The translations under genes and the position numbers were made by a program. This document shows positions 599 to 29,077 of a DNA stretch of 29,077 nt, piece by piece. The DNA lies in the NCBI GenBank assembly GCA_964500015.1, contig CAZCMN010000013.1, forward strand, positions 1 to 29,077, written 5' to 3'. The DNA is from Candidatus Woesearchaeota archaeon. Its GTDB lineage: Archaea; Nanobdellota; Nanobdellia; Pacearchaeales; UBA284. Below the pieces are notes generated by a model. It was not told the DNA's origin. It ran no database searches and worked only from the letters and a program-made list of their open reading frames with translations. Within the stretch, counting starts at the first letter, position 1; every line of letters starts with the position of its first letter.

Positions 599-670
599 AA
601 AAGTAGCGGATATAACACATATAAAGTAATGACAAAAAGTTTATAAAGAAAACTATTTTCTACAAAGAAT

Positions 671-809
671 ACTAGAAAACAAGAAACCCTGTTTTTTAGC
701 ATGCTAAAACCATCAAAAATTAAAAATTTTTGTGGCGCCAAAAGTAGAGATATTTTTGAGCGAATCAGAAGATTTTTGGCATGCAGAAAAAGTTTTCTTT
801 TTCTAGCAT
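671..809. repeat. cluster of three abutting palindromic repeat units (family described in findings)
   Basis: Unit 1 is 671-701 (reverse orientation, shortened). Unit 2 is 702-762: TGCTAAAACCATCAAAAATTAAAAATTTTTGTGGCGCCAAAAGTAGAGATATTTTTGAGCG. Unit 3 is 763-808: ...GATTTTTGGCATGCAGAAAAAGTTTTCTTTTTCTAGCA. Units 1 and 2 meet head-to-head at the palindrome TTTTAGCATGCTAAAA (694-709). Confidence 0.7.
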
Positions 810-831
810 AATAATAAAAGGAGATAAAAAA

Positions 832-2231: not shown

Positions 2232-2621
2232 TTAACCCCTTAGATCTTCGATTCTTATGATATGCCAGCCAAATTGTGTCTTGCATAAAACAATATCTCC
2301 TTTCTTGTTATCAAAAACAGCTTTTTCAAATTCTTTGACCATTTGTCCTCTTCCAAATTCATCTAGTGAACCTCCGCGTTTTTTTGAAGGACATAAGGAA
2401 AATTGTTCTGCCATTTCGCTAAAAAGTTTATTAGACTTTTGGTGCGCCGAAAATTGTCCATGCTCAAGAATAGGAGTATTCTTGGGCACACCAAAAAGCA
2501 AAGCTTTTTTAGTGTTTTCGTGCGTTGAGAATGATTCTCCATTTTTTATTTTAGCTAAAATCTCTTTTGCTTGTTCTTCTGTTTTCACAAGAATATGACT
2601 TGCACGAGCTTTGTTTGCCAT
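2232..2621 (-). CDS. parvulin-type peptidyl-prolyl cis-trans isomerase (PpiC/Par10-like) with a 36-aa repeat-derived insertion
   Basis: ASHILVK...AKIKNGESF and SLCPSKKRGGSLDEFGRGQMVKEFEKAVF...QFGWHIIRIEDL match the parvulin fold motifs. The protein is 129 aa versus about 93 aa for single-domain parvulins; the excess is residues 32-67. Confidence 0.8.
   Translation of the reverse strand: MANKARASHILVKTEEQAKEILAKIKNGESFSTHENTKKALLFGVPKNTPILEHGQFSAHQKSNKLFSEMAEQFSLCPSKKRGGSLDEFGRGQMVKEFEKAVFDNKKGDIVLCKTQFGWHIIRIEDLRG
2418..2528. repeat. two tandem palindromic repeat units embedded in frame in the parvulin gene
   Basis: Plus strand reads GCTAAAAAGTTTATTAGACTTTTGGTGCGCCGAAAATTGTCCA, then TGCTCAAGAATAGGAGTATTCTTGGGCACACCAAAAAGCAAAGCTTTTTTAGTG. 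Both match the intergenic repeat consensus. The inserted coding block 2421-2528 is 108 nt (36 codons). Confidence 0.7.
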
Positions 2622-4031: not shown

Positions 4032-4643
4032 ATGGCAAAAAATTTAACTAAAAAAGAAAAATTTAATGATTTTTCACTTAAATTAGGAGATGTTTTGAAA
4101 AAATTAGGAATCTCTCCTAATGGTTGGACTTTTATCTCTTTAATTTTAGCTATTGTTGCTGTAATTTTTATTATTAAAAATAATCTGATTGTTGGAGCAA
4201 TTTTCTTTTTAATCTCAATTATTTTAGATATATTTGACGGAGCTGTTGCTCGAGCAACAAATAAAACAACAAAATTTGGTGGTTTTTTTGATACGGTTGT
4301 AGACAGATATGTAGAATCTTTGATATTCTTTTCATTACTTTTTATTTCTCTGCCAAATTTATTTCTTCCAATTTATGTTTGGCTTTTTATTTTATTATTT
4401 GGATCATTAATGACTACTTATATCAAGGCAGCTGCAAGAGAAAAGGGCTTGGTTAATGAGGATTTAAGAGGAGGATTTTTAGGAAGATCTGAAAGAACTG
4501 TGATTCTTTTTATTGGGTTGGTAATTGGAAATTTCTTTCCAATTGTTTTATCTTGGATAATATTTATCTTAGCAATTTTAGTTAATTTAGCAGCTATCCA
4601 AAGATTTTTTTTAGCACGAAAGCAATCCAGCTTGAGAAAGTAG
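4032..4643 (+). CDS. CDP-alcohol phosphatidyltransferase family protein (second copy)
   Basis: Signature DIFDGAVARATNKTTKFGGFFDTVVDR, about 6 predicted TM helices. ATG 4032 is preferred over the GTG at 4023, which overlaps the carS stop. Confidence 0.75.
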   Translation: MAKNLTKKEKFNDFSLKLGDVLKKLGISPNGWTFISLILAIVAVIFIIKNNLIVGAIFFLISIILDIFDGAVARATNKTTKFGGFFDTVVDRYVESLIFFSLLFISLPNLFLPIYVWLFILLFGSLMTTYIKAAAREKGLVNEDLRGGFLGRSERTVILFIGLVIGNFFPIVLSWIIFILAILVNLAAIQRFFLARKQSSLRK

Positions 4644-5268
4644 AGGTAAGGTGAACTGTTCTAGAACTTAATTTTCCTTTTGCAATTGTTCTCCTTTTTA
4701 ATATTCCTTCTTTGAACTCTTTTAAGTTTTTTGCCTCACATTCAGTATAAGCTTTTCCAACTTCAGATAAAGAATGAGCATCTGATCCTGCACTAGCAGC
4801 TTTGTTTTTTAGTTTTTTATATAGCAAGAATGCTTTTTTGTTCTTATTTCTTGTTCTCCTTGAATTTAAGATTTCTATAGCATCTACCTTTTTTGCATAG
4901 TTTTTGATTTCTTCAAAAGAATGTTTTTTTTCAAATGGATGTGCTAAAATTGCTATTCCATTTTGTTTTTTTATTTCTTTAAGAATATGGGCAAAAGAAT
5001 TTTGATTATAATAATCTGACTTGATTTCTTTTTTTAAAAATAATCCTATAAGTTCAACACCTTCTTTGCATTTAATTTCTTCTCCTAAAATTAATTGCAT
5101 CTTAAGCTTTTTTGCAGCTTGAATTGCATTCTGCCAGCCTTCTGCATTATTATGGTCTGTTATTGCAATTCCATCTAAACCCCGATCTTTGGCTTTTTGG
5201 AGTATTTTAGATGGAGAACAGAGACAGTCAAAAGAATATTTTGTATGGACATGTAAATCGAGTTTCAT
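4594..5268 (-). CDS. PHP-domain metal-dependent phosphoesterase
   Basis: MKLDLHVHTKYS, IAITDHN, ILAHPF and GSDAHSLSEVG are the PHP (polymerase and histidinol phosphatase) His/Asp motifs. Its 3' end overlaps the convergent transferase gene by 50 nt (4594-4643). Confidence 0.75.
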   Translation of the reverse strand: MKLDLHVHTKYSFDCLCSPSKILQKAKDRGLDGIAITDHNNAEGWQNAIQAAKKLKMQLILGEEIKCKEGVELIGLFLKKEIKSDYYNQNSFAHILKEIKKQNGIAILAHPFEKKHSFEEIKNYAKKVDAIEILNSRRTRNKNKKAFLLYKKLKNKAASAGSDAHSLSEVGKAYTECEAKNLKEFKEGILKRRTIAKGKLSSRTVHLTSTFSSWIAFVLKKIFG

Positions 5269-5270
5269 TT

Positions 5271-5322
5271 CAGCAAAAACTCCTTTTTTTGGTGTGCCAA
5301 AGATATTGTTGATTTTTGAGCA
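5271..5322. repeat. palindromic repeat unit
   Basis: CAGCAAAAACTCCTTTTTTTGGTGTGCCAAAGATATTGTTGATTTTTGAGCA, starting 3 nt upstream of the PHP start codon. Confidence 0.65.
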
Positions 5323-5349
5323 TTTTAGTTTTCATTTTTTAATTAGAGA

Positions 5350-5444
5350 CGCCCGGACCAAGAATTGAACTTGGATATCCTTGCGGAAACAACCTTTTTG
5401 ACTTTCGGTTCCAGGGTTGCGCCTTACCATTGGGCCATCCGGGC
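5350..5444 (-). tRNA. tRNA-Ser(GGA) with a 13-nt intron 3' of the anticodon
   Basis: Minus-strand read: GCCCGGA TG GCCC AATGGTA AGGC G CAACC CTGGAA[CCGAAAGTCAAAA]A GGTTG TTTCCGCAAGGATAT CCAAG TTCAATT CTTGG TCCGGGC G. The acceptor is a perfect 7 bp. The 15-nt variable arm and G73 fit Ser. Anticodon-stem closure requires removing about 13 nt at the canonical 37/38 position. I could not draw a strict bulge-helix-bulge. Confidence 0.8.
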
Positions 5445-5445
5445 A

Positions 5446-5499
5446 TGCTCAAAAAACAGGGTTTTTTGGCATACAGAAAACGTTTAGCGTTTTCTAGTA
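5446..5499. repeat. palindromic repeat unit
   Basis: TGCTCAAAAAACAGGGTTTTTTGGCATACAGAAAACGTTTAGCGTTTTCTAGTA, abutting the 5' end of tRNA-Ser. Confidence 0.7.
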
Positions 5500-5666
5500 T
5501 AATTATTTTAATTAAATTCTAGTTAAAAAGCTTGTGATATTTTTTATCTTAAATTTCTTCTGGGCTTTTATTATCTTATTATATATCCTGTTTCATCTAA
5601 AAGTTTAAAAACTTAAACTTCGAGGGATTAAATAAACTTAAATTTAAATTTTAAAAAAGAGATAAA

Positions 5667-6882: not shown

Positions 6883-6958
6883 TTTGATGTATTTTTAATT
6901 TGTAAATTTATAGTATGATTCTATTTAGTGGTTCTGGTGCTTCAAATCTCAAGTACAA

Positions 6959-7013
6959 CGCTAAAAAAGCATGGCTTTTTGGCGTGCCGAAAAACTTCTG
7001 TTTTTCCAGCACG
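6959..7013. repeat. palindromic repeat unit
   Basis: CGCTAAAAAAGCATGGCTTTTTGGCGTGCCGAAAAACTTCTGTTTTTCCAGCACG, about 77 nt upstream of the tmk start. Confidence 0.7.
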
Positions 7014-7082
7014 TTGCAGAACCAAAATTTGGTTTTGTATTTATTTATATGCTATTACTTTTTATTTATTTAGTTCAAGATA

Positions 7083-7136
7083 TGCTAAAAAAATTTAATT
7101 TTTTGGCATACCGGAAATGTCATTCATTTCCGAGTA
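7083..7136. repeat. palindromic repeat unit overlapping the 3' end of glyA
   Basis: TGCTAAAAAAATTTAATTTTTTGGCATACCGGAAATGTCATTCATTTCCGAGTA. The reverse strand encodes the last GlyA residues [13 protein letters not shown] and the stop codon. Confidence 0.7.
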
Positions 7137-8357
7137 TAGTGGAAATTTTGACGTTAAATTCAAAACCTGTTTTTTGATTTCGTTTAATTTTAAAGGGTCA
7201 TTTTTGTTTTTAATTGTTTCTGAAATTAAATTAGCTATGATTTTCATTTCTTCTTCTTTCATGCCTCTTGTAGTTATTGCTGGTGTTCCTAGTCTGATTC
7301 CTGAAGGATCAAATGGACTTTTTTTATCAAATGGAATCATATTCTTATTTACTGTTATTCCTATGCTGTCTAGTAATTTTTCAGCTTCTTTTCCAGGAAT
7401 ATTTTTATTTGTCAAATCTATAAGAATAAGATGTGTGTCTGTTCCTCCGGAAACTAAACGAAATTCATATTTCTTTAGTTCATTAGCTAAGGTTTTTGCA
7501 TTTTTTACAACTTGGTGGATATAATCTTTGAATTCTAGGGTTGAGGCTTCTTTAAGTGCAACTGCTTTAGCTGCATTAACATGATTGTGCGGACCGCCCT
7601 GCATGCCTGGAAAAACAGCCCTATCAATATCTTTTGCAAATTTTTCTTTGCATAAAATCATCGCACCCCTTGGGCCTCTTAATGTTTTATGGGTTGTTGT
7701 TGTAACTATATCTGTAAAGGGAAATGGACTTTGATGGATTCCGGCAACAATCAAGCCAGCTATATGCGAAATATCTGCAAAACTTATAGCGTTTATTGAT
7801 TCTGAAATTTCGTGAATTTTCTTAAAATCAATTTCTCTTGGATAAGCTGATGCTCCTGAGACAATCATCTTAGGTTTTTCTCTTTCTGCAATTTCCTTTA
7901 TTTTTTCATAATCTAATAATTCTGTTTTTTCATCAACACCATATTGAACAAAATTGAAAACTTTTCCTGAAAAATTAATTGGATGTCCATGAGTTAAATG
8001 ACCGCCATGAGCTAAGTTCATTCCCATGACTTTATCTCCTGGATTTAAGAAGGCAAAATAAACTGCTAGATTAGCTGGGCTTCCAGAATAAGGCTGAACA
8101 TTAACATGTTCTGCATTAAAAAGCTCTTTTGCTCTTTTTATTGCTAAGTCTTCTGCTTCATCAATAAATTCATTTCCACCATAGTATCTTTTATGAGAAT
8201 AACCTTCAGAATATTTATTTGTCAAGACAGATCCTAGTGCTTCAAGAACGGCTAAACTTGTGAAATTTTCAGAAGGAATTAATTCCAGGACATTCTGCTG
8301 TCGTTTAATTTCTTTTTGAATTATTGCATAAATTTCAGGATCAATTTTTTGTAACAT
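7095..8357 (-). CDS. glyA: serine hydroxymethyltransferase
   Basis: The SHMT PLP-lysine signature [13 protein letters not shown] is present, with N-terminal [11 protein letters not shown] and YSEGYPxKRYYGG-type motifs. Length is 420 aa. Confidence 0.95.
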
Positions 8358-8430
8358 TTTTTTGTATGCATTTTAAGTTTAGGTAAGCATAAAATATTTA
8401 TTTCTTGCAGGATCTGCTCAGAGCAAACAA

Positions 8431-8483
8431 TGCTCGAAAAATAGGATTTTTCGGCATGTCAAAATCTGTTCGATTTTAACACG
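8431..8483. repeat. palindromic repeat unit
   Basis: TGCTCGAAAAATAGGATTTTTCGGCATGTCAAAATCTGTTCGATTTTAACACG, 74 nt upstream of the glyA start. An 11-nt palindrome TGCTCAGAGCA lies at 8415-8425. Confidence 0.65.
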
Positions 8484-8527
8484 TTGTCCTGCGCAATTAG
8501 TTTTGATTATTAACTCTTCTTCTCGTT

Positions 8528-14898: not shown

Positions 14899-15344
14899 AA
14901 ACAAAAAACTTATATCAATATCCAATGAGAAAGGAAGATGTGATAAGAACAGATACTTCTTCACCAGCTCATGAAGGAAAATTAAAATATGCAGTTGATT
15001 TTCTTTGTAAAGAAGGATCGAGAGTTCATGTAGCTTATGATGGTGAGATTGTTGAAGTTTTAGATAATAAAAAAGAGAATACTCTTGAAAAAGAAGATAT
15101 GAATGATGCAGGCAATTTTATTTTGGTTAAACATGAGAATGGAGAATATAGTCATTATGCTCATTTTAGATATAATGGTATTTTGAAAAAGAAAGGAGAC
15201 AAGATTTTACAGGGGGATTTATTGGGGTTTAGTGGGAATACTGGTTTTTCTTATGGGCCTCATTTGCATTTTTCAGTTATAAAGTTTACAGGAAAATTAA
15301 AAGATGATTTTGAAAGTCTAGAAATTAGGTGGAAGAGAAGATGA
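14895..15344 (+). CDS. M23 (LytM-type) metallopeptidase domain protein, no signal peptide
   Basis: AHEGKLKYAVDF (His...Asp), DGEIVEV, GNFILVKHENGEYSHYAH and SGNTGFSYGPHLHF (HxH) are present. ATGA overlap with the upstream gene at 14895-14898. Confidence 0.75.
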   Translation: MKTKNLYQYPMRKEDVIRTDTSSPAHEGKLKYAVDFLCKEGSRVHVAYDGEIVEVLDNKKENTLEKEDMNDAGNFILVKHENGEYSHYAHFRYNGILKKKGDKILQGDLLGFSGNTGFSYGPHLHFSVIKFTGKLKDDFESLEIRWKRR

Positions 15345-15949
15345 AACTAGGAATTTTGTTTTCAGGTGGAAAAGATTCAACTTATGCTGCTTATTTAGCT
15401 AAGATGAAAGGATATGGGATATGTTGTTTGATTACTATTATATCAGAAAATCCAGATAGTTACATGTTTCAGCAGGTTTCTGAAGAAGATATAAAAAAAC
15501 AAGCTAATGCTATGAACTTGCCAGTAGTTTATCAAAAAACTAAGGGTGTTAAAGAAAAAGAATTAAAAGATTTAGAAAAAGCAATTAAAAAAGCTAAAGA
15601 AAAATTTCAAATTGAAGGTTTAGTTATTGGGGCTTTAGCTTCTGTTTATCAAGCTTCTAGAGTTCAGAAAATTTGTGATAAACTTGAATTATGGTGTTTT
15701 AATCCTTTATGGCAGAAAGACCAATTTGAGTTATTAGATGAATTATTAAAAAATAAATTCAAGATAAAGATTGTCAAAGTTGCTGCTGAAGGTTTAGATG
15801 AAAAATGGGTTGGAAAGATAATTGATAAGAAATTTCTTCAAGAAATCAAGAAACTTAATGAGAAATTTAAAGTAAATCCTGCTGGAGAAGGTGGCGAGTT
15901 TGAAACTTATGTTTTAGATTGTCCTCTATTTCAGGGGGAGATAAAATGA
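15341..15949 (+). CDS. dph6: Dph6/MJ0570-family PP-loop ATP pyrophosphatase (diphthine-ammonia ligase-like)
   Basis: MKLGILFSGGKDSTYA (PP-loop SGGxDS), ENPDSYMFQ, GALASVYQASRV and AGEGGEFETYVLDCPLF closely track the MJ0570 family pattern. ATGA overlap with the M23 gene at 15341-15344. Confidence 0.85.
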   Translation: MKLGILFSGGKDSTYAAYLAKMKGYGICCLITIISENPDSYMFQQVSEEDIKKQANAMNLPVVYQKTKGVKEKELKDLEKAIKKAKEKFQIEGLVIGALASVYQASRVQKICDKLELWCFNPLWQKDQFELLDELLKNKFKIKIVKVAAEGLDEKWVGKIIDKKFLQEIKKLNEKFKVNPAGEGGEFETYVLDCPLFQGEIK

Positions 15950-16025
15950 ACAATCTTTTTAATGTTAAATTAAATTTTAGCAAGACAACTTTGTGCTGTT
16001 GCAATCTTGTTTGATTTGACTAAAA

Positions 16026-16622
16026 ATGATTCTAATAATTAATACATGTAAAGAAAAACTGCATTATCTTGAATTTGTTAGGCCAATTGAAGAGATTGTA
16101 AAAAAAGAGAGCAAGTTTTTCACCAAACATTATTTTGAAGTTAATTTAAAAGACTTGGAAAAAGCTGAGAAAGTGATTATCTGTGGAACAGCTTTAAAAG
16201 ATTTTGAATATGACCGAGAAATGATGGCTTTTTCATGGCTTAGAGGTTTTGAAAAGCCGATTTTGGGAATTTGTGCTGGAATGCAGATTATTGTAAAGAC
16301 TTTTGATGGAAATTTAAGTGTCCTTGAAAACTCTGAGTTTTTGGGACGCCAAAAATCCCGAGGATTTTTTAGCGAGAAAAAAGAGATAGGTTTAATTAAA
16401 GTTAAATTTGATAAAGATTTTTTAGAAATTAAGAAAGGAGAAGTTGAAGCTTATGCTTTGCATAAGTCTGATGTAATTGGTTTAGGAAAAGATATTGAGG
16501 TTTATGGGAAATCAAAAAAAGGAATTCAGGCTATTAAGCTGAAAAGTAAGGAAATTTATGGGGTAATGTTTCATCCTGAAGCTAGAAATAGGGAAATTGT
16601 TGAAAATTTTTGCAAGAAGTAA
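16026..16622 (+). CDS. class I glutamine amidotransferase-like protein with an 18-aa repeat-derived insertion
   Basis: Nucleophile elbow PILGICAGMQ and the C-terminal His-Glu pair in VMFHPE are present. Residues 100-117 (LENSEFLGRQKSRGFFSE) are encoded by a repeat unit. Confidence 0.7.
   Translation: MILIINTCKEKLHYLEFVRPIEEIVKKESKFFTKHYFEVNLKDLEKAEKVIICGTALKDFEYDREMMAFSWLRGFEKPILGICAGMQIIVKTFDGNLSVLENSEFLGRQKSRGFFSEKKEIGLIKVKFDKDFLEIKKGEVEAYALHKSDVIGLGKDIEVYGKSKKGIQAIKLKSKEIYGVMFHPEARNREIVENFCKK
16323..16375. repeat. palindromic repeat unit embedded in frame in the GATase gene (reverse orientation)
   Basis: The reverse complement reads TCGCTAAAAAATCCTCGGGATTTTTGGCGTCCCAAAAACTCAGAGTTTTCAAG, matching the intergenic units. 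It starts exactly at codon 100 and spans 18 codons. Confidence 0.7.
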
Positions 16623-17046: not shown

Positions 17047-17079
17047 GTTTATCCTCCGTCTTTGTATTTAATGAGTTTA

Positions 17080-17140
17080 TGCTCGAAAATTCAAAAGAAT
17101 TTTCGGACATCACCAAAAACTTTATGGTTTTTGATGAGCA
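17080..17140. repeat. palindromic repeat unit
   Basis: TGCTCGAAAATTCAAAAGAATTTTCGGACATCACCAAAAACTTTATGGTTTTTGATGAGCA, between the albA start and the rps17e stop. Confidence 0.65.
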
Positions 17141-18172: not shown

Positions 18173-18249
18173 GATGTTCTATATCTAAAATTGTATTTAA
18201 ATCTTATTTTTTTAGTTAAATTTAAATACAATTTTTCCCTTTATGATTA

Positions 18250-18301
18250 TGCTAGAAAATGTGAAAACATTTTCTGCAAAGTAAAAACTGTTCGTTTTCA
18301 C
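18250..18301. repeat. palindromic repeat unit
   Basis: TGCTAGAAAATGTGAAAACATTTTCTGCAAAGTAAAAACTGTTCGTTTTCAC, ending 17 nt before the pilus ATPase start. Confidence 0.6.
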
Positions 18302-18317
18302 TTAAAGAGAGGTAGAA

Positions 18318-28880: not shown

Positions 28881-28907
28881 ATTCAAAATGATAAATCTTT
28901 TTAATTA

Positions 28908-28954
28908 TGCTAGAAAAACAGGGTTTTTCTGCACAGCAAAAACTGGAGGTTTTT
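28908..28954. repeat. palindromic repeat unit
   Basis: TGCTAGAAAAACAGGGTTTTTCTGCACAGCAAAAACTGGAGGTTTTT. It shares TGCT.(A/G)AAAAACAGGGTTTTT with the 5446 copy and ends 7 nt before the L41e start. Confidence 0.65.
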
Positions 28955-28960
28955 ATTGAA

Positions 28961-29077
28961 ATGAAAAGATCAAGTAGAAGATGGAAGAAAAAGAGGCAGA
29001 TGAGATGGAAATGGCAGAGAAAAAGGATTAGAAAAGAAAAAAGAAAGAGAAAACAAAAAAGATTAGCTGCAATTTAA
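28961..29077 (+). CDS. rpl41e: 50S ribosomal protein L41e
   Basis: 38-aa ORF below the track cutoff: MKRSSRRWKKKRQMRWKWQRKRIRKEKRKRKQKRLAAI. KRSSRRWKKK-x-RMRWKW is the archaeal eL41 signature as I recall it. The TAA stop is the last three bases of the window. Confidence 0.8.
   Translation: MKRSSRRWKKKRQMRWKWQRKRIRKEKRKRKQKRLAAI

Follow-up and report, generated by a model that had tools for sequence, protein, structure and literature searches.

In the 29,077-nt window analyzed in this study, a stretch of contig CAZCMN010000013.1 from a Candidatus Woesearchaeota archaeon, the gene of a stand-alone class I glutamine amidotransferase (GATase) carries a 54-nt unit of a short double-hairpin repeat. 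The insertion of one repeat unit into this gene was confirmed, and the unit is very probably a selfish element, similar to the Rickettsia palindromic elements (RPEs) and the repetitive extragenic palindromes (REPs) of bacteria, that is translated as a tolerated loop of the enzyme. The host open reading frame (ORF) scored 62 bits against PF00117 (curated cut-off, 22.8; E=8e-17), identifying it as a GATase domain protein, and its triad, Cys83 in the G-x-C-x-G nucleophile elbow (GICAGMQ) and His183 and Glu185 in FHPE, was invariant across 31 aligned GATase sequences.

The homologue search returned 1099 sequences, most of those listed being 174-199 aa long vs. 198 aa for the GATase of the window. 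In the alignment of 31 GATases, a clean 18-column gap between 'NL' and a near-invariant E-I-G was present in 30/30 homologues, none of which had an alignable 18-mer; therefore the finding that the preliminary description of this DNA had named as evidence against an insertion, an alignable 18-residue segment in orthologues lacking the repeat, was not obtained. At the DNA level, the syntenic orthologues at loci L001, L003, and L004 showed a single 54-nt gap with both flanks aligning, and 16 of the insert positions were absent from the nearest solved relative, the M. jannaschii GMP synthase subunit A (2LXN). As had been proposed, the insertion is in frame (codons 100-117, LENSEFLGRQKSRGFFSE, of the ORF at 16026-16622) and lies between the elbow with Cys83 and the conserved E-I-G strand. 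MAFFT placed it at 16317-16370, and the preliminary description at 16323-16376, its sequence string being found at 16323-16375. The bounds are probably 2 nt further left, at 16321-16374, because the rejoined flanks, NLSEKKEIG, then match those of the orthologues (NIVEKKEIG, NLKEKEEIG); the junctions fall at about 16320 and 16375, and the peptides across them are NLSVLENSEFLGR and GFFSEKKEIG. Contigs of two further assemblies, L005 (Logan SRR8437217, 1013 nt) and L006 (ENA ERZ27248920, 921 nt), contain the GATase gene and its insert at 100% identity, which rules out a one-off assembly error.

The insert was then assigned to the repeat family by a leave-one-out nhmmer profile, for which only the five best remaining copies were used and the GATase copy was excluded. 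This profile found the segment 16326-16373 (E=3.7e-5, minus strand; 5.8e-4, plus strand), with a match covering both hairpins (model positions 3-50), and the indel is exactly one unit, 54 nt, in agreement with the single unit first reported. A covariance model (CM), for which this copy was in the training set, scored it 48.9 bits on the minus and 44.5 bits on the plus strand. On either strand the unit folds as two hairpins, with energies of -16.4 and -18.3 kcal/mol (z about -2.6 and -2.8). The reverse orientation given earlier is only weakly defined, since the unit is nearly dyad-symmetric.

The effect of the insert on the protein was evaluated with AlphaFold2 on the 31-sequence alignment. The predicted fold was confident (mean predicted local distance difference test (pLDDT) score 90.5; predicted TM score 0.88), while residues 101-120 averaged a pLDDT of 52-53 and residues 109-115 fell below 50. 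DSSP assigned coil to residues 98-119 of the model, between the strand that follows the nucleophile helix (84-92) and the strand at 120-128. The modelling proposed in the preliminary description thus suggests that the insert forms a coil of low confidence, whereas the rest of the fold is predicted confidently and keeps the Cys-His-Glu triad, and the insert is presumably without function for the enzyme. In other homologues of the alignment the same loop carries unrelated insertions of 2-17 residues, therefore the site tolerates length change. This loop (residues ~93-120, alignment columns 120-160) is an indel hot spot, with 17 residues added in P0012 and a common insert of ~8 residues (E/QIWxSGK-like) in P0013, P0015, P0016, and P0020; P0022 and P0114 have insertions elsewhere nearby in the alignment.

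Further, two more genes of the window, encoding a parvulin-type peptidyl-prolyl isomerase (PPIase) and serine hydroxymethyltransferase (SHMT), carry the repeat. The parvulin (gene at 2232-2621, minus strand) has 129 aa vs. 92-94 aa in its homologues, and 36 of its residues are missing from homologues with 91-92% alignment identity; the sequence before and after the gap aligns with E. coli Par10. Compared with the DNA of L116, L119, and L120, the gap is exactly 108 nt with zero duplicated bases. As two side-by-side units this insert scored lower: any tandem split gave ~25 bits, whereas removal of an internal 54 nt at offset 42-45 left two units with 31.8 bits in total. It is therefore best read as a nested pair. 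Without the inner 18 residues, TKKALLFGVPKNTPILEH, the remaining THENGQFSAHQKSNKLFS aligned residue-by-residue to the GATase segment VLENSEFLGRQKSRGFFS. Four parvulin homologues (P0124, P0133, P0140, and P0165) are 188 aa long and consist of the whole PPIase domain in tandem, which is unrelated to the repeat insert.

In SHMT, the unit provides the last ~12 codons and the stop codon, so that the C-terminus is rewritten and no longer reads LYPELNKL* as in its orthologues (420 vs. 414 aa). The unit follows CTATA, and a remnant of the native tail, GAACTAAATAAATAA, is recognizable beyond it. The core FSAHQKS was indeed present in the parvulin in the same frame as the GATase unit, as had been noted; this coincidence is true but not special, as the exonised copies use all three frames, with FG[VM]PKN in SHMT and the parvulin inner unit and F[WR]xAKN in a GrpE at locus L062. 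A 57-column three-frame profile search for exonised copies in proteins yielded 147 candidates, with one match at E=0.53.

In the window, the CM with filters off detected 12 full-length copies with E<1e-3 and, in addition, the split outer unit of the parvulin insert, in 29 kb (Table 1). Together the copies occupy 773 nt, which amounts to 2.7% of the whole window and, for its intergenic DNA (3155 nt), to 17.8%. No copies were found in 61 kb of syntenic DNA of the relatives L001, L003, and L004, while the closer relative L116 had two at other positions, one of them directly upstream of an uninterrupted parvulin gene; copy positions therefore differ between related genomes. The tmk/SHMT spacer is 8 nt in L001 vs. 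212 nt here, and the SHMT/ThyX spacer 10 vs. 170 nt.

Table 1. Host gene and copies of the double-hairpin repeat in the 29,077-nt window.
Feature	Position	Strand	Remarks
Host gene, stand-alone class I GATase	16026..16622	+	198 aa; Pfam PF00117
54-nt double-hairpin repeat unit, in frame in GATase	16321..16374	-	~residues 99-116, VLENSEFLGRQKSRGFFS; bounds ~+/-4 nt
Parvulin PPIase insert, 108 nt in frame	2417..2524	+	outer unit split by inner 54-nt unit (CM: 2459-2518, E=7.7e-7)
SHMT unit, 54 nt	7081..7134	+	near 3' end of SHMT gene (7095-8357, minus strand); CM 66.3 bits
Two overlapping copies	708..810 (708-764; 753-810)	-	upstream of SepF; CM E=4.7e-6 and 1.5e-6
Truncated copy	~660-702		upstream of SepF
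Intergenic copy	5265..5324	-	ends at start codon of PHP-domain gene (4594-5268, minus); CM E=7.2e-5
Intergenic copy	5444..5501	+	abuts tRNA-Val 5' end; CM 70.6 bits; fold z=-6.1
Intergenic copy	6957..7014	+	tmk/SHMT spacer, inside longer structure with outer stem; CM 58.4 bits
Intergenic copy	8429..8485	+	SHMT/ThyX spacer, outer stem too; CM 48.6 bits
Intergenic copy	17078..17140	+	between Alba and S17e genes; CM E=3.7e-5
Intergenic copy	18248..18306	+	just upstream of FlaI-like ATPase gene (18318); CM E=8.8e-5
Intergenic copy	28906..28963	+	after RpoL-like gene, ends at next ATG; CM 53.2 bits

The unit is ~52-58 nt long and consists of two adjacent A5/T5-armed hairpins, in the order arm GCTCAAAAA, variable apex, TTTTTGGC(A/G)T, GCCAAAAA, variable apex, and TTTTTGAGC. 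Canonical copies (L043, L076, and L051) have 11-nt terminal inverted repeats, ATGCTCAAAAA / TTTTTGAGCAT, and one conserved bulged base per stem; the unit ends read [AG][CT]GC[TA]C..., and neither GTAG nor CGTC is in the consensus. Single copies at 5445-5501 and 7082-7138 folded with z about -6 against shuffles. In hairpin 1 of 40 copies from many genomes, an outer pair was U-A:C-G in the ratio 20:20 and another A-U:G-C in 28:11, with none broken. In 141 distinct rows of an alignment that was fitted to the model and included both strands of each copy, 87.2% of cells were paired vs. 74.2% in shuffles, double-sided changes occurred in 20/22 pairs, and the covariation was 0.360 vs. 0.137 when shuffled and at most 0.091 when partners were slid. 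Stop-free frames made up 51% of element frames, vs. 24% in shuffled copies and 35% in random pieces of the window. An Rfam scan passed three tRNAs and gave no match overlapping the repeat at E<=1.

The repeat proved to be widespread in archaeal metagenome-assembled genomes (MAGs). A DNA pattern scan, with one genome per species, gave at least 109 loci, in 52 of which the window-derived profile detected full two-hairpin units (61 copies). Among the matches listed, all 52 confirmed loci were archaeal-labelled, as Woese-, Pace-, Nano-, and Aenigmatarchaeota, Nanoarchaeia, 'uncultured Methanosarcinales', Methanolliviera, and Halobacteria, and none of the bacterial pattern matches was confirmed by the profile. 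Of three DNA-pattern matches in viral contigs only one was a weak CM match, giving no support for viral carriers. As judged from these sequences, the repeat family is not private to this genome. Many of the 61 copies, among the matches listed, lie directly at gene starts. A Pacearchaeota MAG, LacPavin_0920_SED5_MAG_33_27, has four copies within 1.2 kb (L096:3674-4837), a local hot spot, and further copies on two other contigs (L008 and L019).

Genic copies were also found in other archaea. The GrpE of L062 (PF01025, E=1.2e-16) contains an in-frame unit with the peptide SLKIEDFRDAKNPKDFLAN, and the Dph2 of L063 (PF01866) has a unit in its N-terminal part, with the peptide VLENQRFSGRQKSKRIFKR in the GATase frame. 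In contrast, an IS200-type tnpA (PF01797, E=5e-30) was interrupted in L121, L127, L032, and L122 by 52, 52, 53, and 103 nt, respectively, and these units break the frame or add a stop. Essential genes with stop-free units of 3n length and a dispensable tnpA with frame-breaking ones are what blind insertion followed by selection predicts. This tnpA family is very abundant, with 280 relatives of 75-92% identity in groundwater and sediment metagenomes (L123-L200, e.g., L137:1440-2010) and many contigs per sample, and has its own end hairpin, ACCACCT...AGGTGGT; the few copies that carry the repeat do so at the same two sites, AAATA^CAAC and GATA^CATTC.

These observations fit the following scheme. 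A small non-coding selfish double-hairpin repeat would have inserted into the GATase gene, in the part encoding a surface loop that directly follows the nucleophile helix and precedes the E-I-G strand. Insertion is probably blind to the reading frame, essentially, with purifying selection keeping the in-frame stop-free copies in essential genes; the GATase copy would owe its survival to its length of 54 nt and to the lack of stops in the frame where it landed. The element would be unusually 'ORF-friendly' because its A-runs and T-runs cannot form stop codons. Translation of the unit would then produce an 18-residue hydrophilic and probably disordered loop that leaves triad and fold intact.

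Mobility was probably provided by a hairpin-recognizing enzyme supplied in trans, as suggested by the conserved arms, the conserved bulged base, the lack of duplication, and the insertion into other copies. Such unit-into-unit insertion was seen in the parvulin and in L032, there at the junction of the two hairpins. No target-site duplication was found in filled/empty comparisons at five sites (GATase, parvulin, two tnpA sites, and SHMT). ATA^ precedes the unit at 3/5 of these sites, too few to call a preference, and not clearly at GATase and parvulin. In several MAGs the unit lies within longer shared blocks of 160-280 bp, and an all-against-all BLAST of the loci (8-kb pieces) for a larger autonomous element gave just shared blocks of this size and no transposase. 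We commit only to a non-autonomous element moved in trans. A wider reading, in which the repeats form an undescribed pan-archaeal, DPANN-centred mobile family of ~55-nt double hairpins that spreads with no duplication of the target, inserts into its own copies, and is repeatedly exonised in core proteins, moved by hairpin-recognizing machinery, and the archaeal counterpart of RPEs, is held tentatively, with somewhat less than even confidence.

Several points weigh against the selfish-element reading. The production and activity of the insert-bearing GATase are predictions from sequence and model, and the source genome is represented here by the 29-kb contig only. The nearest GATase orthologues without insert are just 74-81% identical, so the insertion event is not datable, and the copies within the window are only ~60-70% alike and therefore show no sign of a very recent burst. 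The covariation in the stems could stem from template-switch repair of quasi-palindromes instead of selection, and the pair counts reflect the model-fitted, two-strand alignment described above. Finally, no transposase or other enzyme that could mobilize the units was identified; mobility itself is therefore deduced from presence/absence differences.

Among the competing explanations, the one that retains most, although still unlikely, is that the units are REP-like derivatives of IS200/IS605 or palindrome-associated transposable elements (PATEs), mobilized by a Y1 (HUH) transposase in the manner of bacterial REPtrons. In its favor, the hairpins form imperfect palindromes in which a bulged base is conserved, target-site duplication is absent, 3/5 sites lie directly after ATA, and the Y1_Tnp gene of L032 (PF01797, E=5e-30), detected with an IS608 TnpA probe, has units on both sides. 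However, the units interrupt that tnpA and do not bound it, with 52+51 nt in the N-terminal part and 53 nt just past the codon of the conserved C-terminal Tyr. Units occurred in only 2/73 upstream and 2/74 downstream flanks of tnpA homologues, that insertion sequence has its own unrelated end hairpin, and the GTAG and CGTC tags are absent, although a different Y1 enzyme might be involved; the archaeal Y1 proteins in a published survey were IS200-type only, with none REP-associated (PMC6006769). Since the element has HUH-like traits but the adjacent Y1 gene is a victim, the commitment is limited to movement in trans as stated above. This particular tnpA was also considered as the driver and rejected: a comparison of 80 homologous loci showed the intact gene to be without units, L032, L121, L122, and L127 being insertion victims. 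A gene with a Bro-N domain (PF02498, E=4e-9; L032:1172-2011) lies 1-3 kb from copies in L032, L053, L008, L115, and L057; its recurrence in five loci of different archaeal MAGs may be due to chance, or the gene may belong to a mobile element.

A smaller chance is given to co-option, in which the unit serves as an RNA or DNA attenuator or mRNA stability element, or its peptide as an interaction or regulatory loop. The unit brings sense-strand T5 and T6 runs together with stable hairpins, the intergenic copies sit tight against gene starts and ends, and compensatory change maintains the stems. Yet T5+ runs are commonplace in the window (8.5 per kb), with four more in the GATase gene outside the insert, the peptide is modelled as a low-confidence coil, the host proteins are unrelated and without a common theme, and relatives manage without the unit.

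It is very improbable that the segment is a native lineage-specific GATase loop whose likeness to the repeat arose by chance, or from which the repeats derive. The loop is a site of frequent indels, as unrelated 2-17-residue insertions in P0012, P0013, P0015, P0016, P0017, P0020, and P0029 show, but the profile that excluded the GATase copy matched the segment over the entire two-hairpin architecture, which here has a compensatory apex of its own, the indel is exactly as long as one unit, the same unit occurs in parvulin, SHMT, and nine intergenic sites, and an alignable 18-mer was found in 0/30 homologues. Hardly more credible is a mis-assembly that spliced a repeat copy into the gene of a repeat-rich metagenome: repeats do break assemblies, and the two other GATase contigs are short, but three assemblies from different sources are identical across both junctions, the insert keeps the frame and contains no stop, its flanks join up into orthologous sequence (AAGTG|AGAAAA), and parvulin and SHMT show the same pattern. 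Archaea splice bulge-helix-bulge (BHB) introns from a few mRNAs, and the strong structure of the unit would suit its removal before translation as such an intron or as an intein-like element; this too is a most improbable account, since excised units would not need to be stop-free and of 3n length, or stop-supplying as in SHMT, and the folds show two plain hairpins and no helix with a 3-nt bulge on each side at the junctions, 18 residues are far below intein length, and no Rfam match was obtained.

The window is AT-rich (30.7% GC) with archaeal gene content, including Alba, ribosomal protein S17e, a RIO/Bud32-type kinase, an RpoL-like subunit, ThyX, SHMT, SepF, Dph2- and Dph6-type diphthamide enzymes, and an intron-containing tRNA-Val, and the named homologues of its proteins are from MAGs labelled Pacearchaeota, Woesearchaeota, or Nanoarchaeota. 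The GATase gene lies directly downstream of a Dph6-type diphthamide synthase gene (15329-15949; PF01902, E=1.2e-59), a gene order also found in the syntenic loci L001-L004, and the GATase may supply ammonia to the Dph6-type enzyme. The spacer between the two genes (15950-16025) is 76 nt here, while the genes overlap by 8 nt in L001-L003; it contains an imperfect inverted repeat, but no member of the repeat family. The Dph2-like ORF (1217-1870) matches positions 68-274 only of the PF01866 profile, its N-terminal part being seemingly missing or diverged. The tRNA-Val gene (5348-5445, minus strand, 98 nt) is bracketed by the copies at 5265-5324 and 5444-5501. At 6925-7035 and 8400-8510, an outer 7-8-bp stem differs compensatorily (GGTTCTG/CAGAACC vs. 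GCAGGAT/GTCCTGC), and an extra small hairpin 5' of the core gives a four-way-junction-like fold (z=-3.8 and -1.7); this structure is possibly a 'long form' of the element, or else another hairpin in which a unit has inserted.

The capture of a selfish palindrome in frame is one of the few observed routes for new segments into old essential proteins, and is known mainly from Rickettsia and some bacteria rich in REPs; here it is met in reduced DPANN-type archaeal genomes. With arms conserved across phyla and both filled and empty sites at hand, the family is a tractable case in which movement and protein tolerance can be asked about. In practice, the units inflate spacers, break assemblies, and cause gene calls with false N-terminal extensions or unusual C-termini, and 18-residue 'lineage-specific loops' derived from them should not be taken for adaptations.

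A literature search returned papers on RPE, REP, and MITEs (miniature transposable elements with inverted repeats), none of them describing this archaeal family, although an earlier description may exist. The phenomenon is of a known kind, in bacteria, while the element family and its cross-phylum spread in archaea appear to be new. RPEs (Ogata et al., 2000) are ~100-150 bp long, bacterial, and confined to Rickettsia, and the peptide segments they add were judged compatible with fold and function (summarized in PMC10969869 and PMC3733652). The present repeat is like RPEs in being a short palindromic repeat scattered in a small genome, in frame in unrelated housekeeping genes at some sites and intergenic at others; in-frame insertion with empty homologues was found for GATase, parvulin, and SHMT, and for GrpE and Dph2 elsewhere. 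It is unlike RPEs in its 52-58-nt unit, its archaeal hosts from several phyla, and its two A5/T5-armed hairpins, with no sequence relation detected. Given the archaeal host and a length of a third to a half of that of RPEs, RPE membership is not claimed.

Similar to the REP and REPIN elements, which include intragenic copies (Di Nocera et al., 2013, PMC3733652; Bertels and Rainey, 2011, PMC3116915), the units are imperfect palindromes that are abundant in the intergenic spacers of operons, often paired, and without target duplication; their termini sometimes donate stop codons to ORFs, as in SHMT here, and a minority lies wholly inside ORFs. Unlike them, the units have no GTAG/CGTC tag, no REP-associated tyrosine transposase (RAYT) was found, and the sole adjacent Y1 gene, the tnpA of L032, is an insertion casualty that the repeats interrupt rather than flank as in a REPtron. 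Archaeal MITEs are known from Sulfolobus, Halobacterium, and Haloquadratum (PMC10969869). The units share with MITEs their small size, non-coding and multi-copy nature, terminal inverted repeats, and positions that differ between related genomes; however, they are at the bottom of the size range, showed no target-site duplication at five sites, have internal stems kept by compensatory change, and, among the 8-kb pieces of other genomes compared, no parent insertion sequence sharing their ends turned up. With the IS200/IS605-derived PATEs they have in common two end hairpins and little else, the lack of duplication, and possibly a short preferred target, but no cognate tnpA/tnpB was identified, the hairpins of the abundant IS200 are unrelated, and a target preference is not established. 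Since the REP tags, a REPtron, and MITE-type duplication were all absent, the element is an analogue rather than a member of these families, and its closest analogue appears to be the RPE in behavior and the bacterial REP/REPIN in form (PMC3733652, PMC10969869).

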